Below are positions 8,535 to 25,378 of a DNA stretch of 64,000 bases, piece after piece. Under the pieces are notes generated by a model that saw nothing but the letters and a program-made list of their open reading frames with translations, was not told the origin of the DNA and did not search any database. Location of the stretch: contig JAFKKH010000012.1 of the NCBI GenBank assembly GCA_017305665.1, positions 187,617 through 251,616 on the forward strand, read 5' to 3'. This DNA is from Hyphomicrobiales bacterium (GTDB taxonomy: Bacteria; Pseudomonadota; Alphaproteobacteria; Rhizobiales; Xanthobacteraceae). Each line of letters begins with the position of its first letter. Positions within the stretch are counted from its first letter, which is position 1. The translations under genes were made by a program, and so were the position numbers.

Positions 8535-8613
8535 CAAGAGATGGGGCGTTATTGCATCGTGTGTGCCGAAATACCAGCCTTGGGCGAAGGATCATTCCAT
8601 CCGCCCAAAAACC

Positions 8614-10137
8614 TCACGAGATGGCCTGCCATTCTAGCATGCCGTCGGCGGCGGTCGAAATCGCGCCGGATGATCCGACCGGCGTCCGGTCCATGTCGAG
8701 TAGCCGCGCCAAGGTCGCCGTGTCCGATACCGGCACCCGCGCCAGCGTCCGCGCATCCTCGGCCGTCCGCAGCATGACGACGCCGTGCTGGGCTTCCCCC
8801 TTGCCGCCGTAGATCACGGTGAAGCTTTCGACGGTGCCGCGTCCCTTGGCGTCGGTGACAAAGGACGGCGCCGGCTTGCGATGGCGATCGGCCTCCGCCT
8901 GCACGCTGGTCTCCTGCGCGATGGCGCCGTCCGGCGCGCGCCGCGACAGCACCAGCCCGTGATGCTTGGTGACGAAGCCGCCCTGACCGTAGAGCAGGCC
9001 GAGCTTGGTGCCGCCGCGCAGCTTGCGGACCATCGCACAAGCTGCGTGCGTCATGTAGGTATTGAGCGGTGCGCCGAAGAAGGTGAGGCCGCCGTTCACG
9101 GTCGGCTGCACGTCGGACCCGAACCCGAGCGTGCGCCGCGCCATCTTCGGCACGCACGGGAAGCAGCTATAGAGCTCGACGGCGTCGAACGCCTTGCCGT
9201 CGCCGCCGACCAGCGCCATGACAGCTTTCAGCACGGCATTCTGCGCGTGGCTTTCGTGGAACTGGTCGCGCTCGAGATAGTCGCGTGGCTCCTCGGCCGA
9301 TGCGCCACCCCAGACATGGATCATGCGATCCTCCGGGATTCCTGCGGCGCGCGCCTTCGCCAGACTGGTCATCAGCAGCGCCGCGCCTTGATTGACCGAC
9401 GGATTGGCCACCATCAGCTTGGTGTAGGGCCACGCGATCAGCCGGTTGTCGGCGGTCGGTGTCGTGATGTCGTCGGGCGCGAACTCGCGCTTCAGCCAGG
9501 CGTTCGGATTACCGGCGGCCACCTTGGAATATTTCGACCAGAGGTCGCCGGATTCCTGCAGCGCCTCGCGCGGCGTCAGTCCCCAATGCGCCGCGGTCGC
9601 CGCCTCATAGAGCGGATAGACTGTGATCGGTCTGAATACGCCGAGCTTCACCGCCGTCGGCTTCTGGTAACTCGCGCCGCGCAACGGCTCCGGCGCATCA
9701 TGCGCGAACGGCGTCCATGGCAGCGTCACGCCGGCGCGTTCGGCCTTGGTGGCCGTGCTCTGCGCTTCGGCACCGCAGACCGCGGCGACGCTGCTTTCGC
9801 CGCGCGCAATCCGCTGCGCCGCCTCGTGCAGGTAGCGGATCGGGCTCTCGCCGCCGACCGGGCCGTAATAGGCGTGCTTCGGCTTGATGTTCAGCTTGGC
9901 GCTGAGTTGCGCTACGGGGTCCTGGTAGCGCCAGCTCAGGAAGTTGACGATGTCGAGCGAGTCGATGTCGCGGAGCAGGGAAGCGCCGCTGTCCTGTTCG
10001 GCGCGCTTCAGCGCGGCTTCCAGCAGCGCCAACGGTTCGAGACCGTCTGCGATGTTTGCCGGGTGATCGGAGATTTCGCCGATCCCGACGATGACGGGGA
10101 TGCGGTCGTCGGACACGGGAGATTTGGCTTCAGTCAT
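8614..10137 (-). CDS. Thiolase-like protein (TLP1 type) with extra C-terminal domain
   Basis: Thiolase fold motifs VIVGIGE, MVANPSVNQGAA, LYSCFP, NGGLTFFGAP; GGESP where the nucleophilic Cys normally lies; ~100-aa C-terminal extension starting GTVESFTV. Confidence 0.75.
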   Translation of the reverse strand: MTEAKSPVSDDRIPVIVGIGEISDHPANIADGLEPLALLEAALKRAEQDSGASLLRDIDSLDIVNFLSWRYQDPVAQLSAKLNIKPKHAYYGPVGGESPIRYLHEAAQRIARGESSVAAVCGAEAQSTATKAERAGVTLPWTPFAHDAPEPLRGASYQKPTAVKLGVFRPITVYPLYEAATAAHWGLTPREALQESGDLWSKYSKVAAGNPNAWLKREFAPDDITTPTADNRLIAWPYTKLMVANPSVNQGAALLMTSLAKARAAGIPEDRMIHVWGGASAEEPRDYLERDQFHESHAQNAVLKAVMALVGGDGKAFDAVELYSCFPCVPKMARRTLGFGSDVQPTVNGGLTFFGAPLNTYMTHAACAMVRKLRGGTKLGLLYGQGGFVTKHHGLVLSRRAPDGAIAQETSVQAEADRHRKPAPSFVTDAKGRGTVESFTVIYGGKGEAQHGVVMLRTAEDARTLARVPVSDTATLARLLDMDRTPVGSSGAISTAADGMLEWQAIS

Positions 10138-10154: not shown

Positions 10155-11288
10155 TTATTCGGAGACCAGATTCTCAAGATGCTCGATCGCGTCGGCAAAA
10201 TCTTCCTTGAATTCCTGCACGACGGCGCCAGCCGATTTGACGCTGTCGATCAGACCGACGCCCTGGCCGACGAAATAGCTGACGAGATCGCGCGCGGCTG
10301 CGTTGCCGGCCGCGGCCGAGCGGTCGATGGAGGCAAAGGCGTCGCGACTGATGATGCTTTGCAGCGGCATCGGCAGGGCACCTGGACTGTCCGGGCCGCG
10401 ATCCCACGCGTCGGTCCAGACCGAGCGCAACTGTCGCGCCGGCTTGCCGGTGCGGCCCTTGGAGCGGATCGCGTCGCGCGAGGAGGCCGCGATCATCTTC
10501 TCGCGGAAGATTTCGGTGGTTTCGGATTCGACCGTCGCGAGCCAGATCGAGCCCGTCCAGGCGCCGGCCGCGCCCATTGCCATGCAGGCCGCCATCTGCC
10601 GCCCGGTCATGATGCCGCCGGCGGCCAGCACCGGCACGTCGCGCATCGGTTTGACGGCTTTGATGACCTCGGGCACCAGCACCATGGTCGAGACCTCGCC
10701 GCAGTGGCCACCGGCCTCGGTGCCCTGCGCGACGAGAATATCAACGCCCGCCGCGACCTGCCGCACGGCATGTTCCTTGGCCCCGACCAGCGCCGCGACC
10801 GGCACGTCGTGCGCCTTGCCCATCTCGATCATGGTTTTGGGCGGCACGCCGAGCGCGTTGGCGATCAGGCGGATCGGGTGCTGGAAGGCGGCATCGAGCA
10901 CGTCGAGCGCGCGCTGGGCGTCGAAGGGCTGCGGCTGGTTGTCGGCGACGTTACGCGTCGTCAGTTCGATGCCGTATTTTTTCAGGAGGTTGCGGGTGAA
11001 ATCCCGATGCTCCGGCGTGATGCGAGCCTCTAAGCTTTTCCAGGTGACGTCCTTTTCACCGGCTGTCGAAATGTTCTCCGGGATCAATACGTCGAGGCCG
11101 TAGGGCTTGCCATCGGCGTGATCGTCGATCCACTTCAGTTCCTGCTCGATGGTCTCGGGAGAGTGCGTGGTCGCGCCGAGCACACCGAAACCGCCGGCGC
11201 GGCTGACGGCTGCGACTACGTCGCGGCAGTGGCTAAACGCCAGCAGCGGGAATTCGATTCCCAGCATGTCGCAGATCGGTGACTTCAT
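10155..11288 (-). CDS. Nitronate monooxygenase / FabK-like FMN-dependent oxidoreductase
   Basis: AQGTEAGGHCG, PVLAAGGI and GAWTGS motifs of the NMO family. Confidence 0.85.
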   Translation of the reverse strand: MKSPICDMLGIEFPLLAFSHCRDVVAAVSRAGGFGVLGATTHSPETIEQELKWIDDHADGKPYGLDVLIPENISTAGEKDVTWKSLEARITPEHRDFTRNLLKKYGIELTTRNVADNQPQPFDAQRALDVLDAAFQHPIRLIANALGVPPKTMIEMGKAHDVPVAALVGAKEHAVRQVAAGVDILVAQGTEAGGHCGEVSTMVLVPEVIKAVKPMRDVPVLAAGGIMTGRQMAACMAMGAAGAWTGSIWLATVESETTEIFREKMIAASSRDAIRSKGRTGKPARQLRSVWTDAWDRGPDSPGALPMPLQSIISRDAFASIDRSAAAGNAAARDLVSYFVGQGVGLIDSVKSAGAVVQEFKEDFADAIEHLENLVSE

Positions 11289-11527
11289 TGCTGTTCCGCT
11301 CCCGAATGCCCGTCTCGATCGGCGGGATATGATCCGGACGCTAGCTCATCGGTGGTACCCTCGCCAAGCTTGAGTTGGCGCCGGACAATGCGCCGGCGGG
11401 CTTGCATTTCCGTGACGCAAAATATGCACGCGTATGCGGCGCCTTTGCCTCTTGCGCTTTTATCGCGTGGGTTGAATGCTGCGCTTGAAGCGTTCGGCGA
11501 AACGTGATCGATCGGGAGACCAGCTTG

Positions 11528-13201
11528 ATGTCGGTGCCACAGCCACATTCCGCGAAACATGGCGATGCCAGCCGTAATTCTTACGATGTCGTGATCGTCG
11601 GCGCGGGTTTTGCCGGGATGTATATGCTGCATCGGCTGCGCGGGCTCGGACTCTCCGCACGGGTGTTCGAGCAGGGCAGCGATGTCGGCGGTACCTGGTA
11701 CTGGAATCGCTACCCCGGCGCGCGCTGCGATGTCGAGAGCATGCAATATTCCTATTCGTTCGACGATAAGCTGCAGCAGGAATGGGATTGGAGCGAGCGT
11801 TATGCGCCGCAGCCCGAAATCCTGAAATATGCCCAGCATGTGGCGGACCGTTTCAATCTCCGGTCCGACATCGCGTTCAATATCCGTGTCGAGTCCGCGA
11901 CGTTCGACGAGATCGCCAACACGTGGTCGGTCACGACCTCCGACGAAAAAACAGTCACGGCGAAATACGTGGTCCTCGCCACCGGCTGCCTGTCCAATGC
12001 GCGAATGCCTGACTTCAAGGGCCTGAAGGACTTCAAGGGCGAGGTCTATCACACCGGACACTGGCCGCATCATCCGGTCGATTTCACCGGCAAGCGCGTT
12101 GGCGTGATCGGGACGGGCTCGTCTGCGATCCAGTCGATTCCGGTGATTGCGGAAAAGGCGAAGCACGTCACCGTGTTCCAGCGCACGGCGAATTTCAGCA
12201 TCCCGGCGCGCAACGGTTTATTGACCGCCGAGGAACGGCAATCGTTTCGGCACAACTACCCGGAGATCCGTCGCAAGGCGCGCGAGGAGATGCGCAACGG
12301 CATCTGGCAGGAATTACCCGATCGCGGCGCGCTCGACGATGGCGACAACGAGCGCCGGGCGAAATACGAAACGCGATGGACCAAAGGTGGTCTGACATTC
12401 ACCGCCACCTACAACAATATCGCGCTGGACAAGGCCGCCAACGATACCGCTGCTGATTTTGTGCGCGACAAGATCGCCGAGATCGTCAAGGACCCGGCGA
12501 CCGCCCGGTTGCTGCAGCCGAACGATCACCCGATCGGTTCGAAGCGGATATGTGTCGATACGGAGTACTACGCGACGTTCAATCGGCCCAACGTGACGCT
12601 GGTCGATGTGAAGTCCGCGCCGATCGAGGAGATCCTGCCGAACGGCTTGCGCACGGGTGGCAAGGTGTATGAGTTCGACACGCTGGTGCTGGCGACCGGT
12701 TTCGATGCCATGACCGGATCGGTCGCGAAAATCGACATCAGGGGCCGGGACGGGCAGACGCTCAATGACAAGTGGGCCGCCGGTCCGCGCACCTATCTCG
12801 GCCTGATGAGCGAGGGTTTTCCGAATCTGTTCGTCATCACCGGCCCCGGCAGTCCGTCGGTGCTGAGCAACATGATCGTGTCGATCGAGCAGCACGTCGA
12901 CTGGATCGCTGATTGCCTCGGCTACATGCGGGATCGCGGCTTTGAGGTTATGGAGGCGAAGAGGGATGCCGAGGATAAATGGGTCGATCACGTCAACGAG
13001 GTGGCCCACGGCACGCTCTATCCGCAGGCCAATTCCTGGTACATGGGCGCGAACATTCCCGGCAAGCCGCGCATTTTCATGCCCTATATCGGAGGCGTCG
13101 GCGCCTACCGGCAGATTTGCAACGACGTCGCCGCCAAGGGCTATGAGGGGTTTGTGCTAGCGGCGACGGAGAGGCCGCGAGTGGCGGCGTCCAGCGTATA
13201 G
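11528..13201 (+). CDS. Type I Baeyer-Villiger monooxygenase (CHMO/PAMO-like)
   Basis: GAGFAG, GGTWYWNRYPGARCD, FKGEVYHTGHWP fingerprint (FxGxxxHxxxWP), second Rossmann GTGSS, catalytic Arg in KRIC; RBS GGGAGA before 11528. Confidence 0.93.
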   Translation: MSVPQPHSAKHGDASRNSYDVVIVGAGFAGMYMLHRLRGLGLSARVFEQGSDVGGTWYWNRYPGARCDVESMQYSYSFDDKLQQEWDWSERYAPQPEILKYAQHVADRFNLRSDIAFNIRVESATFDEIANTWSVTTSDEKTVTAKYVVLATGCLSNARMPDFKGLKDFKGEVYHTGHWPHHPVDFTGKRVGVIGTGSSAIQSIPVIAEKAKHVTVFQRTANFSIPARNGLLTAEERQSFRHNYPEIRRKAREEMRNGIWQELPDRGALDDGDNERRAKYETRWTKGGLTFTATYNNIALDKAANDTAADFVRDKIAEIVKDPATARLLQPNDHPIGSKRICVDTEYYATFNRPNVTLVDVKSAPIEEILPNGLRTGGKVYEFDTLVLATGFDAMTGSVAKIDIRGRDGQTLNDKWAAGPRTYLGLMSEGFPNLFVITGPGSPSVLSNMIVSIEQHVDWIADCLGYMRDRGFEVMEAKRDAEDKWVDHVNEVAHGTLYPQANSWYMGANIPGKPRIFMPYIGGVGAYRQICNDVAAKGYEGFVLAATERPRVAASSV

Positions 13202-13371: not shown

Positions 13372-14151
13372 TCAAAACGCCGTATAGCCGCCGTCGATCA
13401 CGAAGGTATCGGCGGTGTGATAGGACGACGCCTTGCTCATGAGATAGACGGCGATACCACCGAAATCCGCCGGGTCGCCGAAACGGCGCATCGGAATGCG
13501 CGGCATGACATTGGCGACGAACTTGTCGTTGGCCATGATGCCGGCCGTCATTTCGCTCTTGATCCAGCCCGGCAGGATGGCGTTCGCGGTAACGCCATGG
13601 CGCGCGAGCTCCACCGCGAGCGCGCGGACCAGCGCATTGATCGCGGCCTTGGTTGCGGCATAGTGCTCGTTGCGGGCGGTGCCGAACAGCGAGGCGAGGC
13701 TGGAGGTCGCGACGAGGCGGCCGAACGCATCGCCCGCATTGGCGCGCTCGGTCATGTGGCGCGCGGCGGCTTGAAAGACGTGAAACACGCCGTCGAGATT
13801 GGTCGCAAACATCGTGCGCCATTGCTCTTCGGTGCGGTCGATGAAGGCGTGCCGGCCTCCGCCGCCGATCCCGGCATTGGCAAAGCAGCCGTCGATCCGG
13901 CCGAAGGTATCGAGCGTCGCCGCCATCGCCGCCTTGACGGAGGCAGCGTCGCTGACGTCGCAAATCCGCGTGTCCACCTTGCCCGGCGCGCCCGCCATGG
14001 TCGCCGCGGCGGCCTTGTTCTTGTCGGCGTTGCGGCCCCAGATCGAGACGTTGCAGCCGGCTGTTGCGAGAGCCTGCGCGATGCCGAGGCCGATGCCGCC
14101 GTTGCCGCCGGTGATGACTGCCGTGCGGCCGCTGAGGTCGAAAATGCTCAT
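13372..14151 (-). CDS. Short-chain dehydrogenase/reductase (3-oxoacyl reductase-like)
   Basis: TGGNGGIG, ANAG, YAATK catalytic motif, NAILPGWI; start MSIFDLSG at 14151. Confidence 0.92.
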   Translation of the reverse strand: MSIFDLSGRTAVITGGNGGIGLGIAQALATAGCNVSIWGRNADKNKAAAATMAGAPGKVDTRICDVSDAASVKAAMAATLDTFGRIDGCFANAGIGGGGRHAFIDRTEEQWRTMFATNLDGVFHVFQAAARHMTERANAGDAFGRLVATSSLASLFGTARNEHYAATKAAINALVRALAVELARHGVTANAILPGWIKSEMTAGIMANDKFVANVMPRIPMRRFGDPADFGGIAVYLMSKASSYHTADTFVIDGGYTAF

Positions 14152-14299: not shown

Positions 14300-14803
14300 A
14301 TGGACGGAGACGATGTGATGGGGAAAGTCCCGGACGGCGGACAAGGCGAGCCCGATCTCAAACCGGCCGATCCCGCCTTCGAGCAGCGCGTTCGTGACAG
14401 CTTCGCACGGCAGACGGCGATGGCGACGCTCGGAATCCGGCTCGAAAGCGTTGAGCCGGGCGTAGTCGAGATGACGATGCCGTTCGATCCGGCGCTGACG
14501 CAGCAGCACGGCTTTATCCATGCAGGAATCCTGACGGCGGGAATGGATAGCGCGTGCGGCTATGCGGCATTTTCCCTCATGCCGGCTGACGCGGCCGTCC
14601 TGACGGTCGAGTTCAAGACCAATTTGCTGGCTCCTGCGAAGGGCGACCGCTTCCTGTTTCGGGGGCGTGTTCTGAAGCCGGGACGGACCCTGACGGTTTG
14701 CGAGGGGCAGGCCTTTGCAATGACGGGGAGCAGCCGAAGGCTCGTTGCAACCATGACCGGCACGCTGATGGCGCTGTTCGACCGCGGAGGCATCGCGCAC
14801 TGA
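14300..14803 (+). CDS. PaaI-family (hotdog fold) thioesterase; start may be 14315 or 14318
   Basis: QQHGFIHAGILTAGMDSACGYA and VLTVEFKTNLLAPA motifs. Confidence 0.88.
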   Translation: MDGDDVMGKVPDGGQGEPDLKPADPAFEQRVRDSFARQTAMATLGIRLESVEPGVVEMTMPFDPALTQQHGFIHAGILTAGMDSACGYAAFSLMPADAAVLTVEFKTNLLAPAKGDRFLFRGRVLKPGRTLTVCEGQAFAMTGSSRRLVATMTGTLMALFDRGGIAH

Positions 14804-14907: not shown

Positions 14908-15699
14908 ATGCAGTTCAAACACGTCACGCTTGATATCGACGGTGCCGTCGCCGTCCTGAAGCTCGACCATCAGGAAGTGATGAACGCGGTCTCCATGGAC
15001 ATGCTCGGCGGTCTCAGCGAGGCGCTGGATGCGATCGAGGACCGCCGCGACGAGGTACGCTGCCTGGTGTTGACCGGCGCGGGGCGGGCGTTCTGCACCG
15101 GCGCCAACCTGCAGGGCCGCAACAACCAGACACCCGGCAAGAGCAATGCGGGTCAATCGCTCGAAGTCGGATTTCATCCGTTCCTGCGCCGCCTGCGCAA
15201 CCTGCATTGTCCGATCGTCACCGCCGTGAATGGACCCGCGGCCGGCGCCGGAATGAGCTTTGCGCTGATGGGCGACATGATCCTGTGCGCGCGTTCGTCG
15301 TATTTTCTGCAGGCGTTCCGCCGTATCGGCCTCGTGCCGGACTGCGGCTCCACGTGGCTGCTGCCGCGCATGGTCGGCAAGGCGCGCTCGGTTGAGCTGT
15401 CGCTGATGGGCGAGCGGCTTCCGGCCGAGAAGGCGCTGGAATGGGGACTCGTCAACCGAGTATACGACGACGCCGCGCTGATGAACGAGGCGATGAAGCT
15501 CGCGCACGAGCTCGCCAACGGTCCGACCGTGGCGCTGTCGCTGATCCGGAAGCTCTACTGGGACAGCTCCGAGAACACGTTCGAGGATCAGCTCAACCTT
15601 GAATTCCAGTCGCAGCGTCTGGCCGGCCGGACATCGGACTTCAAGGAAGGCGTGACGGCCTTCCTCGAAAAGCGCCCTGCAAAGTTCACGGGCAAATAA
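14908..15699 (+). CDS. Crotonase-family protein, PaaG-like isomerase type
   Basis: AFCTGANL, AVNGPAAGAG; both canonical hydratase Glu positions replaced (GMSF, QAF) and Asp present in GLVPDCG; RBS GAGG. Confidence 0.85.
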   Translation: MQFKHVTLDIDGAVAVLKLDHQEVMNAVSMDMLGGLSEALDAIEDRRDEVRCLVLTGAGRAFCTGANLQGRNNQTPGKSNAGQSLEVGFHPFLRRLRNLHCPIVTAVNGPAAGAGMSFALMGDMILCARSSYFLQAFRRIGLVPDCGSTWLLPRMVGKARSVELSLMGERLPAEKALEWGLVNRVYDDAALMNEAMKLAHELANGPTVALSLIRKLYWDSSENTFEDQLNLEFQSQRLAGRTSDFKEGVTAFLEKRPAKFTGK

Positions 15700-15705
15700 G
15701 CCGCG

Positions 15706-16692
15706 ATGACGACGGAGGAACGGCTCGGCCATTGTGTCGGCACGTGGTTTCCGGGCGCGACCGGCATCGAGAACGCGAGGCGGTTATCCGGCGGCGCGAG
15801 CCAGGAGACCTGGTCGTTCGATATCGTGCATCCCGACGGCGTGACCGGCGCGATCCTGCGCCGCGCGCCGGAAGGTTATGGCGCCGCGCCCGAGCGCGCG
15901 GCAGGATTGCCTGCCGAAGCCGTGCTGATGCAGCGCGCGTATGAGGCCGGCGTGCCGTCGCCGCGCGTGCTGCACGTGCTGGTTCCCGAGGATGGCCTCG
16001 CGACTGGCTTCATCATGGATCGTGTCGCGGGCGAAACCATCCCGCGCAAGATTCTTCGCGATGACGAGTTCGCCACCGCGCGGCCCAAGCTGGCGCGACA
16101 GCTCGGCAAGGTGCTGGCTGACATCCACGGTTTGCCGCTGGCGCAACTGCCTGAACTTCGCCGCATGACTGCGGCGGCCGAAATCGCCGAACTGGACCGC
16201 GACTATCGCGCCTTCAGCGGGCCGCGACCGGTGTTCGAGCTGGCGCTGAAATGGTTGCGCGACAACGATCCCGGTCCATCCGCGGAAGTTACCTTGGTGC
16301 ATGGCGACTTCCGCCACGGCAATCTCATCATCGGTTCCGATGGCATCCGCGCGGTGCTGGACTGGGAGCTCGCGCATCTTGGCGATCCCATGGAAGACCT
16401 CGGCTGGATCTGCGTGAACTCGTGGCGGTTCGGTGAGATTGACAAGCCGGTCGGCGGCTTTGGCACGCGCGAGGAGTTGTTCGCAGGCTACGAAGCGGCG
16501 GGCCGTCGCGCTGATCCAGCGCGAGTGATGTTCTGGGAGGTGATGGGCACGCTGCGCTGGGGCGTGATGTGCTGCGGAATGATGCAGCGTTTCCGTACCT
16601 CGCCGGAGCGTTCGATCGAACGCGCGATGATCGGGCGGCGCTCATCGGAAACCGAAATCGATCTGCTGCGCCTGCTGGCGCCGCGAACCTGA
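15706..16692 (+). CDS. lvaA: APH-family phosphotransferase, LvaA-like (4-hydroxyacyl-CoA kinase candidate)
   Basis: RLSGGASQETW, HGDFRHGN catalytic loop, LDWELAHLGDPMEDLGW, WRF, FWEVMGTLRW, resembling P. putida LvaA as I recall it; followed by a DUF6285 gene. Confidence 0.72.
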   Translation: MTTEERLGHCVGTWFPGATGIENARRLSGGASQETWSFDIVHPDGVTGAILRRAPEGYGAAPERAAGLPAEAVLMQRAYEAGVPSPRVLHVLVPEDGLATGFIMDRVAGETIPRKILRDDEFATARPKLARQLGKVLADIHGLPLAQLPELRRMTAAAEIAELDRDYRAFSGPRPVFELALKWLRDNDPGPSAEVTLVHGDFRHGNLIIGSDGIRAVLDWELAHLGDPMEDLGWICVNSWRFGEIDKPVGGFGTREELFAGYEAAGRRADPARVMFWEVMGTLRWGVMCCGMMQRFRTSPERSIERAMIGRRSSETEIDLLRLLAPRT

Positions 16693-16716
16693 GACCGGGC
16701 AGGGAAGGAGAATGCC

Positions 16717-17118
16717 ATGCAGGATGATCCGACACCTCGCGAATTGATCGGAGCGGCCGCGGATTTCCTGCGCAATGAGATCATGCCGCAGATGAAGGGA
16801 CACAGCGCCTTCAAGTTGCGGGTGAGCATCAATGCATTGGATCTGGTCGCGCGGCAATTAGCTCTCGAGCCTGCGAGCGATGCGGCCGAAGCCGCGCGTC
16901 TCACAAAATTGCTTGGCCGCGATGGATCGCTCGCCGATCTCAACCGCGCGCTGGCCGAAGGCATCGCAAAAGGCAAGCTTGATCTCGAGACGTTAGGCGT
17001 CCGCGATCACTTGTGGCAGACCACGCTGGACAAACTCGCGATCGATCAGCCGAACTACGGAAGCTATAAAAGGGAGATGGAGGAAGCGAACGTTTCTGCA
17101 AAGGCACCGTCATCCTGA
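16717..17118 (+). CDS. lvaB: DUF6285 / LvaB-like small helical partner of the phosphotransferase
   Basis: PTPRELI, EAARLTKLL, LADLNRALA, TTLDKLAIDQP pattern; directly downstream of the LvaA-like gene; RBS GGAG. Confidence 0.7.
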   Translation: MQDDPTPRELIGAAADFLRNEIMPQMKGHSAFKLRVSINALDLVARQLALEPASDAAEAARLTKLLGRDGSLADLNRALAEGIAKGKLDLETLGVRDHLWQTTLDKLAIDQPNYGSYKREMEEANVSAKAPSS

Positions 17119-17209
17119 GGTGCGAGTGATCGCGCGCCTCGACGGATGGCGACGAGGAAACTGTCATCCTTCGAGGCTCGCCCAAATGGGCTCGCACCTC
17201 AGGATGACG
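17108..17209. repeat. CGTC-tagged REP/MITE-like element, family A
   Basis: CGTCATCCTGAGGTGCGAG...CTCGCACCTCAGGATGACG long terminal inverted repeat; contains the TGA stop of the DUF6285 gene. Confidence 0.88.
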
Positions 17210-17227
17210 AACGCGGTTGGAGATAAC

Positions 17228-18007
17228 TCACTTCCCCAGCCACTTCGGCGGGCGCTTCTCGGAAAACGCCTTCGGGCCCTCGATGTAGTCCTGCGAGGCG
17301 GCCATGGCCGTCACTGCCGGATAGTCGCGCTGCTCGGTGATCGCCTGTTCCAGTGACACCGCCATGCCCATCCGGATCGCCTGCTTGGAAGCGCGGATCG
17401 ACATCGGGCTGTTCTGGCAGATCGTCTCGGCCCAACGCTCTGCCGCGGCGAGCGCTTCACCTTGCGGCACCACTTCGTTGACGAAGCCGAGCTCGAGTCC
17501 CTCGCGCGCTTTCACATGTCGCGCGGTCAGGATCATGCCCATCGCGCGCTTCAGTCCGATCTGGCGTGGCAGCCGCTGCAGGCCGCCGGCAAGCGCGGCA
17601 AGGCCGACGTGCGGCTCGGGCAGGGCGAAGGTGGCGTTCTCCGAGGCGATGATGAGATCGCAGGCCAGCGCGATCTCGAACCCGCCGCCCATGGCGACGC
17701 CGTTGACCGCGGCGATGATCGGCTTGTCACAATCGAAACGCGAGGTGAGCCCCGCGAAGCCGCCCTTGTCCCAGCCCTTCTTGCCGCCGGCGGCCTGCCA
17801 CTTCAGGTCGTTGCCGGCACAGAACGCCTTGTCACCTGCGCCGGTGACGATGGCCACCCACTGGTCCGGGTCGGCAGTGAACTCGTCGAATACCTTGTTG
17901 AGCTCGAAATGCGCGTCGATATGCAGCGCGTTGTAGACCTCCGGGCGCGACAGCGTCACGATTGTGATTGGGCCCTTGCGTGTAACCTTGGAGAATTGCA
18001 GCGCCAT
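17228..18007 (-). CDS. Enoyl-CoA hydratase (CaiD-like)
   Basis: AFCAGNDL, GGGFEIAL and LPEPHVG with both catalytic Glu retained. Confidence 0.9.
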   Translation of the reverse strand: MALQFSKVTRKGPITIVTLSRPEVYNALHIDAHFELNKVFDEFTADPDQWVAIVTGAGDKAFCAGNDLKWQAAGGKKGWDKGGFAGLTSRFDCDKPIIAAVNGVAMGGGFEIALACDLIIASENATFALPEPHVGLAALAGGLQRLPRQIGLKRAMGMILTARHVKAREGLELGFVNEVVPQGEALAAAERWAETICQNSPMSIRASKQAIRMGMAVSLEQAITEQRDYPAVTAMAASQDYIEGPKAFSEKRPPKWLGK

Positions 18008-18202
18008 GTTCGCTCCCGTTGGTGTTGTTTTCGCGACGAGGAATATCCGGATTTGATCCTAGCGGACGCGACCCGGATGTTGCCATCCAAATACGCAGGT
18101 CACCGCTGTCGGGCAAGGGCCATCCGCTTGCTTGACTCGCTATGAGCTTGCCACCTTAATCGCGACAGCGACCGTAAAAACCATAATATCGGGAGTCTCG
18201 CC

Positions 18203-19477
18203 TTGGATTTTTCCCTGCCCGCCGATCTTGTCGCGTATCTCGCCGAGCTGGACCGCTTCATCGCCACGACGATCAAGCCGCTTGAAGAGCAGGACGACAA
18301 CATCCGCTTCTTCGATCACCGGCGCGAATGGGCGCGCACGGATTTCGACAACGGCGGCCTGCCGCGCCATGAATGGGAAGCGTTGCTGCGTAAGGTCAAG
18401 GATCTCGCTGACGCCGCCGGCCATCTGCGCTTCGCGATCCCGAAGCGCTATGGCGGGAAGGATGGCTCCAATCTCTGGATGGCCGTGATCCGCGAACATT
18501 TTGCGACCAAGGGCCTCGGCCTGCACAACGATTTGCAGAACGAGCATTCGATCGTCGGAAATCTCCCGATCGTCACCATGCTTGATCGTTACGGCCGCGA
18601 CGACCAGAAGGCGATGATCGAGGGATCGATCACCGGCAAATACCGCATCACCTTCGGACTGACCGAACCGGACCATGGTTCCGATGCCACCCATATGGAA
18701 ACTCGTGCGGTGCAGGCGACCCGCGACGGCAAGTCCGGCTGGGTCATCAATGGCGAGAAGATGTGGACCACCGGCATGCATATCGCATCCCACTGCGCGC
18801 TGTTCGCGCGTACCTCGGGCAACGACGGCGATGCGCGCGGCATCACCTGTTTTCTCGTGCCGGCGAACAGCAAGGGTGTGAAGGTCGAGGAATATATGTG
18901 GACCTTCAACATGCCGACCGACCATCCTCGCGTCAGTTTCACCGATGTGTTCGTGCCTGATGATGCGCTGTTCGGTGAGATCGGGCGGGGCCTGTCGCTC
19001 GCGCAGTGCTTTGTGCATGAGAACCGCATCCGGCAGGCGGCGAGTTCGCTCGGCGCCGCCGTCTATTGCATCAATGAGAGCGTGAAATATGCGCGCGAGC
19101 GAAAGCCGTTCGGCGAGGAACTGGCGCGCAATCAGGGCATTCAGTTTCCGCTTGTCGAACTCGCGACGCAGGCCGAGATGCTGCGGCTCCTGATCCGCAA
19201 GACCGCCTGGGAAATGGATCAGCTCACCCAGGCGCAGGTCGAACACACGCTGTCGGACAAGGTCTCAATGTGCAACTACTGGGCGAACCGGCTGTGCTGC
19301 GAGGCGGCCGACCGCGCGATGCAGGTGCACGGCGGTATGGGCTATTCGCGCCACAAGCCGTTCGAACACATCTACCGCCACCATCGCCGCTATCGCATCA
19401 CCGAAGGCAGCGAGGAAATCCAGAAGCGCAAGGTCGCCGGATTCCTGTTCGGCTACATGGGGGCGGGGAAGCATTGA
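18203..19477 (+). CDS. Acyl-CoA dehydrogenase (TTG start)
   Basis: FGLTEPDHGSD, INGEKMWTTG, QVHGGMGY, RITEGSEEI motifs. Confidence 0.92.
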   Translation: MDFSLPADLVAYLAELDRFIATTIKPLEEQDDNIRFFDHRREWARTDFDNGGLPRHEWEALLRKVKDLADAAGHLRFAIPKRYGGKDGSNLWMAVIREHFATKGLGLHNDLQNEHSIVGNLPIVTMLDRYGRDDQKAMIEGSITGKYRITFGLTEPDHGSDATHMETRAVQATRDGKSGWVINGEKMWTTGMHIASHCALFARTSGNDGDARGITCFLVPANSKGVKVEEYMWTFNMPTDHPRVSFTDVFVPDDALFGEIGRGLSLAQCFVHENRIRQAASSLGAAVYCINESVKYARERKPFGEELARNQGIQFPLVELATQAEMLRLLIRKTAWEMDQLTQAQVEHTLSDKVSMCNYWANRLCCEAADRAMQVHGGMGYSRHKPFEHIYRHHRRYRITEGSEEIQKRKVAGFLFGYMGAGKH

Positions 19478-20340
19478 TGGAGCATCTGGACGTTCACGCC
19501 AACGGGTCCCGCTTTCACGTCGCGCGGATCGGGCAGGGACGTCCGCTGCTTTTGCTGCACGGCTGGCCGGAGTTCTGGTTGACGTGGGAACCGGTCATGC
19601 AGCGGCTCGCCGACAGGTTTCAACTGATCGCGCCGGACCTGCACGGCTTCGGCGACAGCGACAAGCCGGATGGTCCCTATGGGCCGGATCGTCATGCGCG
19701 GGACATGCTGGCGTTGCTCGATGCCCTCAAGCTGGATCGCGTCGGCGTTGTCGGCCATGACGTTGGCGGCGCGGTGATGCAGCCGATGGCGCGGCAAGCG
19801 CCGGAACGATTGGCCGGCCTGTTCTTCTTTGGTTTCGTTTATCCCGGCATTGGTGCGCGGATGGGTGCGCCGGATCGTCTCAACGAGATCTGGTATCAGT
19901 CGTTCAACCAGATGCCGATGGCGCCGGAAATGGTCGGTGCGACACGTGACACATGCCGCGCTTATATCGGGCACTTCCTGCGCCACTGGGCGCATCGCAA
20001 GGACGCCTTCGATGACGTGCTGGAGGTGTTCGTCGACAATTTCATGAAGCCGGGAAATCTCGCCGGTGGCTTCGCGCACTATCGCGCCTCGCATGCCGGG
20101 CGCATGGCCATGTTGAGAGGCGATGCGCCAGCCTTGCCGCCGATCACGGTGCCGACCTGCGTGCGCTGGGCCGAGCACGATCCGATCTTTCCCTATGCGT
20201 GGACCGACCGGCTTAGCGGGACATTCGGCAACCTCGACCTCGCGCCGTTTCCCGGCGCCGGCCACTTCGCGCATCGCGAAACGCCGGATCGCGCGGCGGC
20301 CGAGGTCGCGAAATTCTTCGATCGCATTTGGTCGGGCTAG
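19477..20340 (+). CDS. Alpha/beta hydrolase, epoxide hydrolase/dehalogenase class
   Basis: HGWP oxyanion motif, GHDVGG Asp nucleophile, WYQ and HYR tyrosines, GHF; TGATG coupling to the ACAD. Confidence 0.88.
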   Translation: MEHLDVHANGSRFHVARIGQGRPLLLLHGWPEFWLTWEPVMQRLADRFQLIAPDLHGFGDSDKPDGPYGPDRHARDMLALLDALKLDRVGVVGHDVGGAVMQPMARQAPERLAGLFFFGFVYPGIGARMGAPDRLNEIWYQSFNQMPMAPEMVGATRDTCRAYIGHFLRHWAHRKDAFDDVLEVFVDNFMKPGNLAGGFAHYRASHAGRMAMLRGDAPALPPITVPTCVRWAEHDPIFPYAWTDRLSGTFGNLDLAPFPGAGHFAHRETPDRAAAEVAKFFDRIWSG

Positions 20341-20349: not shown

Positions 20350-21930
20350 CTAGTTCACCTGCCGATCCTTGCCCGCCCAATAGGGATCGCGCAGGTTGCG
20401 GCGGAGAATCTTGCCGGATGCGTTGCGCGGTAGCGCCGGAATGAAGTCGACCGTCTTCGGCGTCTTGAATGCGGCGATCCGTTCACGGGCGAACTTGATG
20501 ATGTCGACGGCGGTCGCATCCTTGCCCGGCTTCATCACCACGACGGCCTTGACGGCCTCGCCCCACTGGTCGTCCGGCACGCCGATGACGGCGGCCTCGG
20601 CGACATCGGGATGATCGCAGATCGCGCTCTCCACTTCGGCGGGATAGATGTTTTCGCCGCCGGAGATGATCATGTCCTTGATGCGGTCGTGAATGTAGAG
20701 ATAGCCGTCCTCGTCGAGATAGCCGGCGTCGCCGGTGCGTAGCCAGTTGTCCTTGTCGAGCGTCTTTGCGGTCGCCTCCGGCAGATTCCAGTAGCCGACC
20801 ATGTTGGAGCCCGAGCGCGTCGCGATCTCGCCGACTTCGCGGGGCGGCAGGCGATTGCCGTCGGCATCGAGAATGGCGATCTCGACGCCGGGCAGCGGCT
20901 TGCCGGCCGAGCGCATCCGCTCCAGCCCCTCAACATGATCCTCCGGTGGCAGCGCGACGATGGTGCCGGTGGTCTCGGTCATGCCGTAGAGTTGGACGAA
21001 GCCGCACTTGAAGACGTCGATACATTCCTTCAGCAGCGCGGCCGGGATCGGCGAAGCGCCGTACAGCATGTAGCGCAACCGCGAGAAGTCGATCTCTCGG
21101 GCGCGCGGCTGCCGCACCACGAACTGCATCGCGGCGGGCACCATGAATAGCTTCGAGATCTTCGAATTTTCGAAGAAGTCCAGGATCTTTGTGGGGTCAA
21201 ACTCACGCGCGATGACGCCCTTGGCGCCGTGGTAGATGCCGACCGCGCCCCAGCCGGAACCGCCGATGTGAAAGATCGGCATCGCCACCAGCGACACGTC
21301 GCTTTCCATCCATTTGTTCCAGTCCGGCGCGTCGCCGCCGCGGCCCGCGCGCACCAGCGACAGGAAATTGTAGTGCGACAGCATCGCGCCTTTCGGCTTG
21401 CCGGTCGTGCCTGATGTATAGAGCTGGATCGCGACGTTGTTCTCGTCGACGGGCACCTTCGGATCGTCGCTTGGCTGCGCATCGCGCCACGCGGCAAAAT
21501 CCTTCCACTCCGGTGCGCCGCCTTCGGTGGTCATGATCGCGCGCACGCTCTTGAGTTGTGGCTGGATGGCGCGGGCCTGCTCGATGAATTCGGGACCGAC
21601 GAACAGGATCGCCGCCTTGCAGTCCTCGACGATATAGGCGATCTCCGGACCCGCAAGTCGCCAGTTCACCGGCGCCATGACGACGCCGGCTTTCATCGCG
21701 CCGAACAGCAGCTCGAAATAGTAGTCGCTGTTCTTGCCAAGGTAGGCGATGTGCTCGTTCGGCTTGACGCCGGCCGCGATCAGCGCGCGGGCGACGCGGT
21801 TGGTGTTGCGGTCGAAGTCGGCAAAGCTGGTGACGCGGCCTTCGAATTCGAAGGCCGTAGCATTGCCTCGCGCCTTGCCCTGAACGCGAACCACGTCGGC
21901 AAGTGTCGAGGCTTCCTCGATGGCAGGCAT
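20350..21930 (-). CDS. Long-chain fatty acid-CoA ligase
   Basis: [51 protein letters not shown]; start MPAIEE at 21930. Confidence 0.93.
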
Positions 21931-22082
21931 GTTTCCCCTCACGTGTTCTTGTTTGCCGCAGTGTGAGGCCAACCTTTCGGGAAAACAATAGCGGTTGCCG
22001 TTCGCCGCATTGCAACCCGCTCGCGATTTCCCCGTTGTATTTGGGATCGGCTCGGGCAGGATCGGCGGTGTGGGGCAAATCC

Positions 22083-23582
22083 ATGACGGACATCTGGGCA
22101 CGAAAGTCGCTGACGGTTCTGACTGCGGAAGGCGCGGCGGAAGATGGGGATGCAGCCGCCCGGCCGATGCGGCGAACACTGACGGCCCTCAATCTGGTGA
22201 CACTCGGCATTGGCGGTATCGTGGGTGCCGGCATCTTTGTCCTGACCGGGCACGCGGCTGCCGCTAACGCCGGCCCCGCGGTCACCTTGTCTTTCATTTT
22301 CGGTGCAACGGCATGTGCATTTGCGGCCCTCTGCTACGCCGAGATGGCCTCGATGGTCCCGATCTCGGGCAGCGCCTATACCTACGCTTATGCGACGCTC
22401 GGCGAACTCATCGCGTGGATCATCGGCTGGGACCTGATCCTCGAATATGCCGTCGGTGCCATTGCCGTCGCGATCGGCTGGTCCGGTTATGCCGTCAGCT
22501 TCCTTCGCGATTTGGGTATCGTCATCCCGAGCCGTTTCGCGTCTGCGCCGCTGGCCTTTGACGCCACGAAGCATGTGTGGTCGGTGACCGGCGCAATTAT
22601 CAACCTGCCGGCGATGGCCGTCATCGTCGCCATCACGGCGTTGCTGGTGGTCGGCATTCGCGAGTCGGCCCGATTCAATAACGTCATTGTTGCGGTGAAG
22701 CTGACCGTCATTGTCTTGTTCATCATCTTCTGCACCCATGCGTTCAGCACCGCGAACTGGGTTACGGCCAGCAATCCCCAGGGCGCTTTCATCCCGCCAA
22801 ACAAGGCACCGGGCGTGTTCGGCTGGAGCGGGGTGATCCGCGGCGCGGCGGTGGTGTTCTTCGCTTACATCGGATTCGATGCAGTCTCGACCGCGGCGCA
22901 AGAGACCAAAGTGCCCAGCCGCGACGTGCCCATTGGAATCCTGTTGTCGCTGGTGATCTGCACGCTGCTCTACGTTGCAGTCGGTCTGGTTCTGACCGGC
23001 ATCGTGCCGTTCGATCGGCTCAATGTTGCAGACCCGATCGCAGTGGGAATCGATAACGCGGGAGTCGGCTGGCTGTCGCCATTCATCAAGCTCGGGATTG
23101 TTGCCGGCCTGACGTCGGTCATCCTCGTCATGCTGCTGGCGCAGCCGCGCATCTTCCGCGCCATGGCGCACGATGGTCTGCTGCCGAAAGGCGCTGCCGC
23201 GATTCATCCGCGGTTTCAGACGCCCTATGTGGCGACGATTGCGACCGGGCTCGTCACCACGCCGCTTGCCGGTCTGCTGCCGATCGGTCTCGTGGGTGAA
23301 CTCGTCAGCATCGGAACGCTGTTCGCGTTCGCAATCGTCTGCTGTGGCGTTCTCGTGCTGCGCATCCGTCACCCCAACGAAAAGCGACCCTTCCGGGCGC
23401 CGGCGATCTGGTTTGTGGCGCCTGCCGGCGTCGTGACGTCGTGCTTCCTGATGTTCGGCCTGCCGCTTGATACCTGGATTAGGCTGGTGGTCTGGCTCGC
23501 GATCGGACTTGTCATTTATGCGGCATACGGTGCACGCCACTCCCGCATCGCTGCCTACGGCAATGCGGATAGCCGTGGCTAA
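22083..23582 (+). CDS. APC-family amino acid permease (cationic amino acid transporter-like)
   Basis: [44 protein letters not shown]; multiple TM segments. Confidence 0.92.
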
Positions 23583-24454
23583 CCGCGCTTGGCGCGATCC
23601 TTCTCGTTCTGTGCCTTGATGGCGTCGCGGGCCTGCTCCCAGTCGGCGTCCTTCCAGTCCCGTAACTGATAGAAGTTGCCGCCCATGGCGAGCGCCTGGC
23701 CGCCGTCCATGGCGATGGTCTCGCCGTTGATCCAGTCGCAGCCGCCGGAAATCAGGAAGGTCGCGAGGTTCTGCAATTCCTCCATGGTGCCGACGCGGCC
23801 CATCGGGTTCATCGCCTTGGTGCGTGCGCCGGCTTCATCGCCCGGCTTGATGCGCTTGCTCATGCCCTCGGTCGGAATTTCGCCCGGCGCGATGGTGTTG
23901 AGGCGGATGCCGTATTTGCCCCACTCGGTCGCGAGCGACATGGTCATGGCGTGGATCGCCGACTTGCTCATGGCCGACGGCACCACATAGGGGCTGCCGT
24001 TGCGTACCCATGTCACGGTGATCGAGACGACATTCCCCGGCAACTTGGCGGCGATCCATCGCTTGCCGACTGCGTGGGTCACATAGAACGTGCCATGCAT
24101 GACGATGTTGGCGACGGCGTCGAAGCCGCGCGGTGTCAGGTCCTCGCTGCGCGAGATGAAGTTGCCCGCCGCGTTGTTGATGAGATCGGTGAGAGGGCCT
24201 TCGGCCGTGAAGATCGCTTCGATCATGTGATCGACCGCGGCGGCGTCGCGGATATCGACGCCATGGCTGACGACGCGGCCGCCATATTCGGCCATCAGTT
24301 CGGTCGCGGTCTCGTCGCAGACGATCTTGCGGCGGCCGCAGATGTGCACCATGGCGCCGAGGCTGAGAAATCGCGCGGCCATCGCCTTGCCCAGGCCGGT
24401 GCCGCCGCCCGTGACAAGAATATTTCGGCCCGCAAGAAGCTGTGGGTTGAACAT
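23579..24454 (-). CDS. SDR, 2,4-dienoyl-CoA reductase-like
   Basis: [16 protein letters not shown], no canonical YxxxK (PSAMSK), NTIAPGEI, typical of the DECR subgroup. Confidence 0.78.
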
Positions 24455-24565: not shown

Positions 24566-25378
24566 ATGAATGATCGCGTGTCGGTATCGATGTCTGACGG
24601 CGTGGCGGATGTCCGCCTGGTCCGTGCGGACAAGATGAATGCGCTCGATGCCGCGATGTTCGAGGCTCTTGTGGACACCAGCGATCGGCTCAGCCGCGAG
24701 AAGGGCCTGCGTGCCGTCGTGCTCTCGGGCGAGGGCAAGGCGTTTTGTGCTGGCCTCGACATGGGGCGTTTTGCTGCCATGAAGGAAAATGGCGGTAACG
24801 GGATAGCGGGCGGCGAGAAGCGCGACCTTACGGCGCGGACCTATGGCAAGGCGAATTTCCCGCAACAGGCGGTGTGGGGCTGGCGGCAATTGCCGGTACC
24901 GGTGATCGCCGCCATCCACGGCGTGGCGTTCGGCGGCGGCTTCCAGCTCGCACTCGGCGCCGACATGCGTTACCTCGCGCCGGACGCGCGCATGTCGATC
25001 ATGGAGATCAAGTGGGGTCTCGTGCCCGACATGGCGGGAACGCCGATCCTCGCGAGCCTCGTGCGCGACGATATCCTGCGCGAATTGACCTACACCGGCC
25101 GCATCTTCTCGGCGCAGGAGGCCATGAGCTACGGCCTGGCGACGCAGATTTGCGACGATCCGCGTAGCGTTGCGCTTAGTGTGGCGCTGGAGATCGCGAA
25201 CAAAAGTCCGCATGCGATTCGTGCCGCCAAGCGGATGCTGAACAAGCTGTCGGGCGATCCAGGTCCCGCGCTGCTCGCGGAGTCCGTCGAGCAGCAGGCG
25301 CTGATCGGCGCGCCGAACCAGACCGAGGCGGTCCGCGCCAATCTGGAAAAGCGTGCACCGAAGTTTGCCGAGGTGTGA
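24566..25378 (+). CDS. Enoyl-CoA hydratase/isomerase family protein
   Basis: AFCAGLDM, GGGFQLAL, MEIKWGLVPDM; RBS AGGAG. Confidence 0.9.
   Translation: MNDRVSVSMSDGVADVRLVRADKMNALDAAMFEALVDTSDRLSREKGLRAVVLSGEGKAFCAGLDMGRFAAMKENGGNGIAGGEKRDLTARTYGKANFPQQAVWGWRQLPVPVIAAIHGVAFGGGFQLALGADMRYLAPDARMSIMEIKWGLVPDMAGTPILASLVRDDILRELTYTGRIFSAQEAMSYGLATQICDDPRSVALSVALEIANKSPHAIRAAKRMLNKLSGDPGPALLAESVEQQALIGAPNQTEAVRANLEKRAPKFAEV

Follow-up and report, generated by a model that had tools for sequence, protein, structure and literature searches.

Does a kinase-containing acyl-CoA gene cluster in a rhizobial genome encode the levulinate pathway of pseudomonads, or a different way of disposing of a hydroxyl group by phosphorylation? 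The question is raised by a 64,000-nucleotide stretch of DNA from a Hyphomicrobiales bacterium (assembly GCA_017305665.1, contig JAFKKH010000012.1, positions 187,617 to 251,616; hereafter the window, whose own coordinates are used below), in which genes for a crotonase-fold protein (ECH1), an APH-fold kinase, and a DUF6285 protein are tightly linked and followed by an acyl-CoA dehydrogenase (ACAD) gene. 4-Hydroxy acids arise from lipid peroxidation, lactones, and levulinate. To our knowledge, phosphorylation followed by elimination is the only known route by which they enter β-oxidation, and all characterized cases (LvaABC and ACAD10/11) use one peculiar type of ACAD. The sequence-only reading of the window took the kinase pair as LvaA/LvaB-like and the ACAD as the counterpart of LvaC and ACAD10/11. 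Here, the first assignment was borne out at the family level, while the ACAD belongs to a separate, widely conserved, unnamed subfamily whose genes are linked to those of APH kinases in both bacteria and archaea, a finding that we regard as more interesting than the likeness to LvaAB. Our literature searches turned up no description of the module in this group, in agreement with the sequence-only reading, and none of the ACAD subfamily.

The kinase pair and its relation to LvaA and LvaB

The gaps of 6 and 24 bp reported for the crotonase, kinase, and DUF6285 genes were read directly in the DNA. The ECH1 stop codon (TAA, 15697–15699) is followed by 6 nt and the kinase ATG (15706), and the kinase stop codon (TGA, 16690–16692) is followed by 24 nt containing a ribosome-binding site, GGAAGGAG, and the DUF6285 ATG (16717). 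ECH1 is the first gene of this putative ECH1–APH–DUF6285 operon.

A tblastn search with the window kinase led to a Pseudomonas aeruginosa plasmid that carries a canonical lva operon, and this operon supplied the reference Lva proteins. Its gene order is a prpR-type regulator (PrpR/LvaR), phosphotransferase (APH), lvaB, ACAD, short-chain dehydrogenase (SDR), acyl-CoA synthetase, DUF485, and acetate-type symporter. The small gene carries the NCBI name "lvaB, 4-hydroxypentanoyl-CoA kinase subunit LvaB". Since this genuine LvaB falls within Pfam DUF6285 (85 bits, E 5e-24), DUF6285 is the LvaB family; no statement of this link was found in the literature searched. BLAST found no connection between LvaB and the DUF6285 protein of the window. 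When a profile built from five small proteins of the window type was compared by hhalign with one built from three of the LvaB type, the probability was 98.9% (E 2.5e-17, 120 columns), with ca. 27% identity at the profile level between the window small subunit and LvaB. No NCBIfam model matched the window DUF6285 protein, a result that is uninformative because genuine LvaB is likewise unmatched.

The window kinase and LvaA share 33% identity over 341 aa (E 1.7e-42). The LR (β3 Arg), HGDFRHGN, DWE, GDPxxDLG, and SWRFG motifs are retained in the window kinase, and its AILRRAP, LVHGDFRHGNLI, and VLDWE segments align with LvaA and its relatives. All features of APH-fold membership, namely the catalytic HxDxxxxN loop, the DWE metal-binding motif, and the β3 Arg, are thus present; their roles follow the structure paper on the ACAD10 kinase. 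The best PDB matches were 3dxp and the ACAD11 kinase domain. Among the kinases compared, WRFG was seen only in DUF6285-partnered ones. These results indicate that the pair is homologous to LvaA/LvaB at the family level, with the APH protein as the predicted catalytic subunit and the DUF6285 protein as the predicted small subunit of a two-subunit hydroxyacyl-CoA kinase. According to the literature consulted, an LvaA–LvaB complex with ATP-dependent 4-hydroxyacyl-CoA phosphorylation is known for P. putida only.

In kinase trees (simple neighbor-joining distance trees without support values), the DUF6285-partnered kinases split into two groups, and the window kinase fell in the sister clade of the LvaA clade. 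The LvaA clade comprised Pseudomonas LvaA and kinases of Azoarcus, Azospirillum, Cupriavidus pinatubonensis, and Thermus, and the window clade those of Bradyrhizobium, Tardiphaga, Beijerinckiaceae, Hyphomicrobiales, a Burkholderiales metagenome-assembled genome (MAG), Parvibaculaceae, and Sulfitobacter; deeper branches beside the latter led to Nonomuraea, Variovorax/C. metallidurans, and Nocardia. Pairwise identities agreed with the trees: the window kinase is 33% identical to LvaA but 51–77% identical to members of its own clade, and identities among LvaA-clade members are 43–53%. From its place in a different clade, the window kinase is judged not to be an orthologue of LvaA. The sequence-only reading had likened the locus to the P. 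putida Lva system and to mammalian ACAD10/11; homology of the kinase held, but orthology to LvaA did not.

The kinase pair also occurs in other surroundings. On plasmid p2 of C. pinatubonensis, an LvaA-clade APH–DUF6285 pair (L087, 6932–11955) precedes an indolepyruvate ferredoxin oxidoreductase family gene, an SDR gene, and a BktB thiolase gene, with no ACAD; the pair therefore also serves non-ACAD contexts. In Thermus, Azoarcus, and Azospirillum clusters with an LvaC-type ACAD, a histidine phosphatase family gene lies directly 3′ of APH–DUF6285 (L003, 9345–9986; L086, 8328–9005; L090, 8361–8684), which echoes the report of a phosphatase in place of LvaB in P. citronellolis. Proofreading, regulation, and alternative dephosphorylation are candidate roles for these phosphatases.

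The acyl-CoA dehydrogenase and its linkage to APH kinases

According to the ACAD11 structure paper and a parallel study, the LvaC/ACAD10/11 group is marked by a catalytic Asp, an Arg and HCMR on the adjoining helix, and an APDTGNME segment. The catalytic Asp (Y-D-G) occupies the position at which medium-chain acyl-CoA dehydrogenase (MCAD) has Glu; the helix G residues of mouse ACAD11 are R626, H634, and R637 (upstream Arg and HCMR), and the APDxGN(M) motif contains a Pro (P463 of ACAD11; supplementary Fig. S7, PMC11342911). Bacterial orthologues of the human ACAD10/11 domains are reported to have 56–62% identity to them.

None of these features was found in the window ACAD. In the alignment, it has I-T-E-G (ITEGSEEIQ), that is, Glu instead of the catalytic Asp. 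At the R...HCMR position, it reads FVHENRIRQAASS, and its helix G stretch is CFVHENRIRQAAS, with F, Q, and S at the positions of R626, H634, and R637; the region can be written CFVHENRIRQAASS, compared with RLxPARLTHCMR in LvaC-type proteins. NEHSIVGN (NEHSIVGNLP) occupies the APDxGN position. All three features (HAPDEGN, RLxPARLTHCMR, and YDGPSEVH) are present in the ACADs next to APH–DUF6285 in the Pseudomonas lva operon, Azoarcus, and Thermus, and the Azospirillum ACAD keeps the first two, with VDG at the catalytic position. The window ACAD is 28% identical to LvaC, and its PDB scores were 4e-45 for CarC, ca. 1e-33 for MCAD and short-chain acyl-CoA dehydrogenase (SCAD), and 1e-25 for ACAD11; the Thermus ACAD next to APH–DUF6285 scored 1e-63 against ACAD11. 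Within the 64-kb window, no LvaC-type ACAD was found, and the Glu-type ACAD is the sole ACAD. On this evidence, the window ACAD is classed outside the LvaC/ACAD10/11 type, and its assignment in the sequence-only reading as a counterpart of those enzymes does not hold.

The window ACAD instead groups with a small set of close relatives. We aligned 11 members, drawn from Alpha- and Betaproteobacteria, Actinomycetota, and Halobacteria, among which identity was at least 57%. They share an insertion of ca. 20 residues (FFDHRREwARTDxxxGGxPxxEWE; FFDHRREWARTDFDNGG in the window protein) and the invariant blocks TEPxHGSDAT, WTFNMPTDH, ENRIRQAASS, and PFEHIYRHHRRYRITEG. A library clustered at 50% contained one full-length representative with more than 50% identity (72%), the other high-identity matches being fragments, and the next full-length relatives had at most 38% identity. 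These features place the window ACAD in a distinct, tightly conserved subfamily with no name of its own.

To describe the gene linkage, we used 80 genome loci from a genome scan with the kinase alignment, which are mostly from close relatives and for which the denominators of gene presence vary. DUF6285 lay directly 3′ of the kinase in 76 of 77 loci and a window-type ACAD at most 3.3 kb from the kinase in 55 of 71, so the linkage is not due to chance. The order APH–DUF6285–ACAD without an intervening gene was found in Sulfitobacter, Beijerinckiaceae, Hyphomicrobiales, and Burkholderiales, with ACADs 71–83% identical to that of the window. In Beijerinckiaceae and Burkholderiales MAGs, this triad forms a three-gene island amid efflux, chemotaxis, and other unrelated genes, and no other ACAD lies within 8 kb of the stand-alone triad. 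The kinase-linked ACADs of Nocardia and haloarchaea are 58–66% identical to the window ACAD. An ACAD-seeded search, which returned 13 plasmid records only, gave the same picture: an APH gene was next door in every checked lineage with at least 57% identity but one (present in Sulfitobacter, Nocardia, Halomarina, Natrinema, and Haloterrigena). In haloarchaea, the order is ACAD, a 157-aa protein, and APH, and the kinase lies outside the DUF6285-partnered clades. The haloarchaeal small protein was not detectably DUF6285 (nothing in Pfam; 8% probability by hhalign). In Halomarina, an ECH1-like crotonase gene adjoins the kinase gene.

On the Natrinema and Haloterrigena plasmids (L093 and L094), the module is flanked on one side by an acetoacetate decarboxylase family gene and on the other by hydantoinase/oxoprolinase (acetone-carboxylase-like) genes, and LLM-class flavin oxidoreductase genes are close by. 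This neighborhood hints at a ketone-related pathway. Fusions of kinase and ACAD were also sought as a Rosetta-stone test; the long ACAD relatives (740–800 aa) proved to be tandem ACAD–ACAD proteins and not kinase fusions.

These comparisons bear on the view that the locus is simply orthologous to the Pseudomonas lva operon and serves levulinate and 4-hydroxyvalerate. Each of LvaA, B, C, D, and E has a counterpart at the family level, and to that extent the proposal of a rhizobial version of the Lva system stood. Their identities are only 28–33%, LvaB was undetected by BLAST, the kinase belongs to the sister clade, and the ACAD fails all LvaC signatures. The short-chain dehydrogenase SDRa is 30% identical to LvaD and the acyl-CoA ligase LIG1 31% identical to LvaE, likenesses at the family level only, and the window ligases are of the long-chain type. 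Neither a sigma-54 PrpR/LvaR regulator nor a DUF485 plus acetate symporter pair (LvaF/LvaG) was found; the regulators of the region are LysR-type, and the sole transporter of the cluster is a genome-specific permease of the APC family. In contrast, LvaC, LvaD, and LvaA of true lva orthologues (Azoarcus and Azospirillum) are 43–74% identical to the Pseudomonas proteins, with LvaD at 59–64% in true lva-like clusters. An orthologous levulinate operon is therefore considered highly improbable.

A proposed route for phosphorylated acyl-CoA

How, then, might the cluster act? In the reading that we prefer, LIG1 and LIG2 would activate a fatty or hydroxy acid to its CoA ester, and the APH and DUF6285 proteins would phosphorylate a hydroxyl group on the acyl-CoA side chain, creating a leaving group. 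C4 is the most likely phosphorylated position, because window-clade kinases associate with LvaC-type ACADs (see below); C5 is possible. The Glu-type ACAD would couple α,β-oxidation (C2–C3) to the departure of phosphate and so form an enoyl- or 2,4-dienoyl-CoA (or a 3-enoyl-CoA), which ECH1 as a PaaG-type isomerase, SDRb as a 2,4-dienoyl-CoA reductase (DECR)-type enzyme, and ECH2 as a hydratase would bring back to β-oxidation. For this scheme of a two-subunit hydroxyacyl-CoA kinase, oxidation with phosphate loss, and return by isomerase, reductase, and hydratase, we estimate the chances to be about even. The sequences themselves establish the homology of the kinase pair to LvaAB, its intact catalytic motifs, the subfamily of the ACAD and its lack of the LvaC signatures, and a gene order kept across phyla; the substrate, the phosphorylated position, the action of the ACAD on a phospho-intermediate, and every chemical step are inferred. 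Longer 4-hydroxy acids or γ-lactones, suggested as substrates in the sequence-only reading, are plausible.

The other enzymes of the cluster were compared with this scheme. In Bradyrhizobium and Tardiphaga, the core is SDRa / ECH1–APH–DUF6285 / ECH2 / ACAD / LIG1 / SDRb / ECH3–LIG2. ECH1 matched NCBIfam PRK05981 above cutoff (489 bits), and its best PDB match was PaaG (4fzw_C, 1.8e-71); it lacks both hydratase Glu residues, keeps the PaaG-like VPD (Asp), and was found in 62 of 76 loci. ECH2, present in 56 of 75 loci, has both catalytic Glu motifs (GGGFE and LPEP). The closest PDB match of ECH3, present in 43 of 67 loci, was 4og1 (2e-81), with Δ3,5-Δ2,4-dienoyl-CoA isomerases among the next matches (1e-27), and it in part resembles a dienoyl-CoA isomerase. 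The motifs of these three proteins were read by what we take to be the general rules of the crotonase family. SDRb (45 of 67 loci) matched best, in the PDB, mitochondrial DECR1 (7ucw, 4.7e-63; also 1w6u), and its top NCBIfam model was that for 2,4-dienoyl-CoA reductase (PRK07677, 241 bits, under the 318-bit cutoff). If the loss of phosphate gives a dienoyl- or 3-enoyl-CoA, SDRb, ECH1, and ECH3 form the set that such a pathway would need. SDRa (61 of 75 loci) had generic FabG-like NCBIfam matches only and is possibly an oxoacyl- or hydroxyacyl-CoA oxidoreductase.

LIG1 matched PRK06187 above cutoff (658 bits), was present in 44 of 68 loci, and is 50% identical to the ligase encoded directly upstream of the Sulfitobacter kinase. 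Most Bradyrhizobium loci have a counterpart of LIG2 with 74–83% identity at their downstream edge. In Variovorax and C. metallidurans, the kinase is preceded by a ligase with 48–52% identity to LIG2. Around the Sulfitobacter triad, counterparts of LIG1 (50%) and ECH1 (46%) and a second ECH1/ECH2-like crotonase (35–37%) are encoded.

Several observations weigh against the proposed scheme. The window ACAD has none of the residues tied to phosphate handling in the ACAD11 structure papers, so that its binding of a phosphorylated substrate is presumptive. The genetic linkage has exceptions on either side: a Rhodobacteraceae QY30 plasmid carries the ACAD without a nearby kinase, and Parvibaculaceae carry APH–DUF6285–crotonase with no window-type ACAD nearby. 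Linkage to the DECR-type gene is confined to the Bradyrhizobium/Hyphomicrobiales group. Two further points, concerning the distribution of LvaC-type ACADs and the substrates of ACAD10-type kinases, belong to the alternatives considered next.

The Nonomuraea kinase, which is 49% identical to that of the window, adjoins an LvaC-type ACAD with RLGPGRIFHCMR (HCMR) and YDGP. On a Sulfitobacter pontiacus plasmid, an LvaC-type ACAD (APDEGN, RLSPARLTHCMR, and YDGP) without an adjacent kinase lies ca. 7 kb upstream of the window-type triad (L096, 10635–11798; L001, 3–1145) and is 57% identical to LvaC. Because kinases of the window clade accompany LvaC-type ACADs in these two cases, the same kinase chemistry can be argued for this clade, and the cases support 4-hydroxyacyl-CoA as its probable substrate. 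They are also compatible with a role of the Glu-type ACAD other than phosphate removal, and one Sulfitobacter kinase may serve two types of ACAD. On this basis, the kinase could be an LvaAB-type 4-hydroxyacyl-CoA kinase whose true partner, an LvaC-type ACAD, is encoded at another site of the genome, the Glu-type ACAD being an ordinary dehydrogenase for the chain lengths or the branched or unsaturated products of the pathway. Such an arrangement would agree with the canonical catalytic Glu of the window ACAD and its best scores against ordinary ACADs, as well as with the Nonomuraea kinase abutting an LvaC-type ACAD, and the orphan Sulfitobacter gene near the same type of kinase suggests that a Bradyrhizobium phospho-lyase could likewise be encoded apart from the cluster. 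It fits less well with the stand-alone three-gene islands, with the lack of an LvaC-type ACAD in the window, and with an ACAD subfamily that is tightly conserved and APH-adjacent even in archaea, which would be unusual for a generic dehydrogenase. We consider this division of labor rather unlikely, although it is the strongest of the alternatives to our preferred reading.

The preferred scheme of oxidation with phosphate loss can be extended to a broader claim, which we put forward tentatively and with doubt. In this form, the Glu-type ACAD and APH kinase, with DUF6285 in bacteria, would constitute a second kinase-coupled ACAD system parallel to LvaABC and ACAD10/11, extending from Bradyrhizobium to actinobacteria and haloarchaea. 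The phosphorylated hydroxyl would be removed by a route that is not redox-neutral, in which oxidation to the 2-enoyl-CoA and phosphate elimination to a 2,4-dienoyl- or 3-enoyl-CoA are followed by DECR and a PaaG-type isomerase. Such a system may serve a substrate class or stereoisomer that LvaC-type enzymes refuse, for example, δ-hydroxy acids or lactone-derived acids formed via the neighboring Baeyer-Villiger monooxygenase (BVMO) and hydrolase.

A further possibility is that the substrate of the kinase is not a CoA ester but, for example, a xenobiotic, an antibiotic-like compound, a glycerol ether, or another lipid alcohol; a common lipid context, and not a common intermediate, would then account for the linkage of the kinase to acyl-CoA genes. 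Enzymes with the APH fold are promiscuous, and the ACAD10 kinase domain and prokaryotic homologues are reported to phosphorylate 1-O-alkylglycerols with acyl-CoA as an activator, which is the second of the points mentioned above. The pair also occurs beside non-ACAD genes, as with indolepyruvate ferredoxin oxidoreductase in C. pinatubonensis. The window kinase gave NCBIfam matches to macrolide and aminoglycoside phosphotransferase models, but these resistance-type matches were weak and far below the cutoffs. Moreover, enzymes of acyl-CoA metabolism neighbor the kinase pair in almost every context examined, and the sole characterized DUF6285-partnered kinase, LvaAB, is reported to act on acyl-CoA. 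A non-CoA substrate is thus thought quite improbable.

The locus, its neighbors, and comparison with known systems

The gene map was drawn from Pfam, NCBIfam, and an analysis of GC content at third codon positions across the window (Table 1). The sequence-only reading placed an ACAD gene ca. 1 kb on and SDRs, a thioesterase, and two CoA ligases nearby, and Pfam confirmed all of these.

Table 1 Genes of the kinase–ACAD region, with positions in the window, strand, and family matches.
Feature	Position	Strand	Family match
LysR regulator	7629–8537	-	
Thiolase-like TLP1	8614–10137	-	
NMO/FabK-like flavoenzyme	10155–11288	-	
Type I Baeyer-Villiger/FMO-like flavin monooxygenase (BVMO)	11504–13201	+	Pfam Pyr_redox_3 and FMO-like
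SDRa, FabG-like short-chain dehydrogenase	13372–14136	-	Pfam adh_short_C2, E 2e-59
Hotdog-fold thioesterase	14300–14803	+	Pfam 4HBT, E 1.6e-11
ECH1, crotonase fold, PaaG (isomerase) type	14908–15699	+	Pfam ECH_1, E 9e-56
APH-fold kinase	15706–16692	+	Pfam APH, E 9e-33
DUF6285 protein	16717–17118	+	Pfam DUF6285, E 5e-33, 114 bits (cutoff 28)
ECH2, hydratase-type crotonase	17228–18007	-	Pfam ECH_1, E 1e-60
Glu-type ACAD	18203–19477	+	Pfam ACAD domains
Alpha/beta hydrolase, possible esterase or lactonase	19477–20340	+	Pfam Abhydrolase_1, E 6e-25
LIG1, acyl-CoA ligase, long-chain type	20350–22179	-	Pfam AMP-binding; NCBIfam PRK06187
APC-family permease	21903–23582	+	Pfam AA_permease_2, E 3e-51
SDRb, DECR-type 2,4-dienoyl-CoA reductase	23579–24454	-	
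ECH3, crotonase of PRK07509 family	24566–25378	+	NCBIfam PRK07509, 358 bits, above cutoff
LIG2, acyl-CoA synthetase	25512–27059	+	Pfam AMP-binding; NCBIfam PRK12406, 919 bits
Phosphoenolpyruvate (PEP) carboxylase	27135–29945	+	

The ACAD gene starts with TTG behind a GGGAG site, 1085 bp past DUF6285. The interval of ca. 1 kb is occupied by the opposite-strand crotonase gene ECH2, not by an SDR gene; ECH2 is convergent with DUF6285 and divergent from the ACAD gene. SDRa is divergent from the ECH1–APH–DUF6285 operon. Scans for promoters and terminators gave matches at chance level only. Between the convergent DUF6285 and ECH2 genes, a 22-nt imperfect inverted repeat (17163–17208; 73% complementary, 2-nt loop) was observed, possibly a terminator that works in both directions or else a repeat element. 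The open reading frames of LIG1 and the permease overlap by ca. 280 bp on opposite strands. Because their family matches begin at residues 89 and 95, the true starts are probably internal and the genes divergent, with that of LIG1 probably ca. 80 codons inside the reading frame.

Parts of the cluster vary between genomes. No counterpart of the thioesterase or of the alpha/beta hydrolase was found in any of 84 related loci, and the permease was likewise not in related loci. The thioesterase is present, as stated in the sequence-only reading, but being genome-specific, it falls outside the conserved cluster. The start of the hydrolase gene overlaps the ACAD stop codon by 1 nt (TGATG, 19475–19479); from this overlap and its absence from the 84 related loci, the hydrolase gene appears to have been inserted in translational coupling with the ACAD gene. 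The best NCBIfam match of the BVMO was a pentalenolactone D synthase-type BVMO model (290 bits, below cutoff). A BVMO gene lay upstream in 14 of 68 loci and an NMO gene in 31 of 68, and NMO homologues were also found in the Sulfitobacter and C. metallidurans clusters. Flavin monooxygenases recur farther afield, with a BVMO near the Nocardia kinase–ACAD pair and LLM-class enzymes in haloarchaea and Rhodococcus. This recurrence is a loose association that fits an origin of the hydroxy acids from esters or lactones, and the window BVMO could produce esters or lactones from which hydroxy acids derive.

The window has a GC content of ca. 63% and belongs to the chromosome of a Bradyrhizobium-family (Nitrobacteraceae) bacterium. 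Its kinase is 93% identical to that of a "Nitrobacter sp." MAG and 75–83% identical to those of dozens of Bradyrhizobium genomes, and one metagenome run from a bioreactor contains the window DNA almost whole (0.99 of sampled words). The searches of sequencing runs turned up DNA or metagenome assemblies only and no RNA data. When plasmids were searched with the region by megablast, no known plasmid was matched and weak ACAD matches only were obtained, indicating that the locus is chromosomal. Past the PEP carboxylase gene, a second, separate acyl-CoA module (29989–32698) comprises an SDR, an SCP-x-type thiolase, and a ChsH2-like OB-fold/zinc-ribbon protein; genes for a LysR regulator, a branched-chain-type ABC transporter, amidases, and AtuA lie beyond it.

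If the proposed scheme is true, the module would either solve the same problem by a second kind of chemistry or extend the kinase strategy to another class of hydroxyacyl-CoA. Genes carried by virtually all Bradyrhizobium genomes would also gain a function, as would DUF6285 and an ACAD subfamily of soil, marine, and hypersaline microbes, with practical relevance to the bioconversion of lactones, levulinate, and hydroxy acids.

The nearest known system is LvaAB. Both it and the window pair consist of an APH-fold kinase directly followed by a DUF6285 protein of ca. 120–130 aa, and the LR, HGDxRxGN, DWE, and WRFG motifs are common to both, as is an acyl-CoA gene neighborhood that includes a ligase, an SDR, and an ACAD. 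The window system differs in its sister-clade kinase, in the lack of LvaR and LvaFG, in its long-chain-type ligases, and in an ACAD partner from another subfamily. The window ACAD and the LvaC/ACAD10/11 group have in common the ACAD fold, the FAD-binding architecture, and genetic coupling to an APH-type kinase, whereas the catalytic Glu, the lack of APDxGN, an extra N-terminal insertion, and an identity of 28–31% set the window enzyme apart. An auxiliary β-oxidation set of DECR1, PaaG/Δ3,Δ2-enoyl-CoA isomerase, and Δ3,5-Δ2,4-dienoyl-CoA isomerase is matched by SDRb, ECH1, and ECH3, for which these activities are predicted. The 5-hydroxyvaleryl-CoA dehydratase/dehydrogenase of Clostridium aminovalericum is a flavin-containing, ACAD-like enzyme that oxidizes its substrate to the 2-enoyl-CoA and eliminates a δ leaving group to form 2,4-dienoyl-CoA. 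Likened to the window ACAD by mechanism alone, it would be an analogue of the proposed ACAD step, but one that works without phosphorylation.

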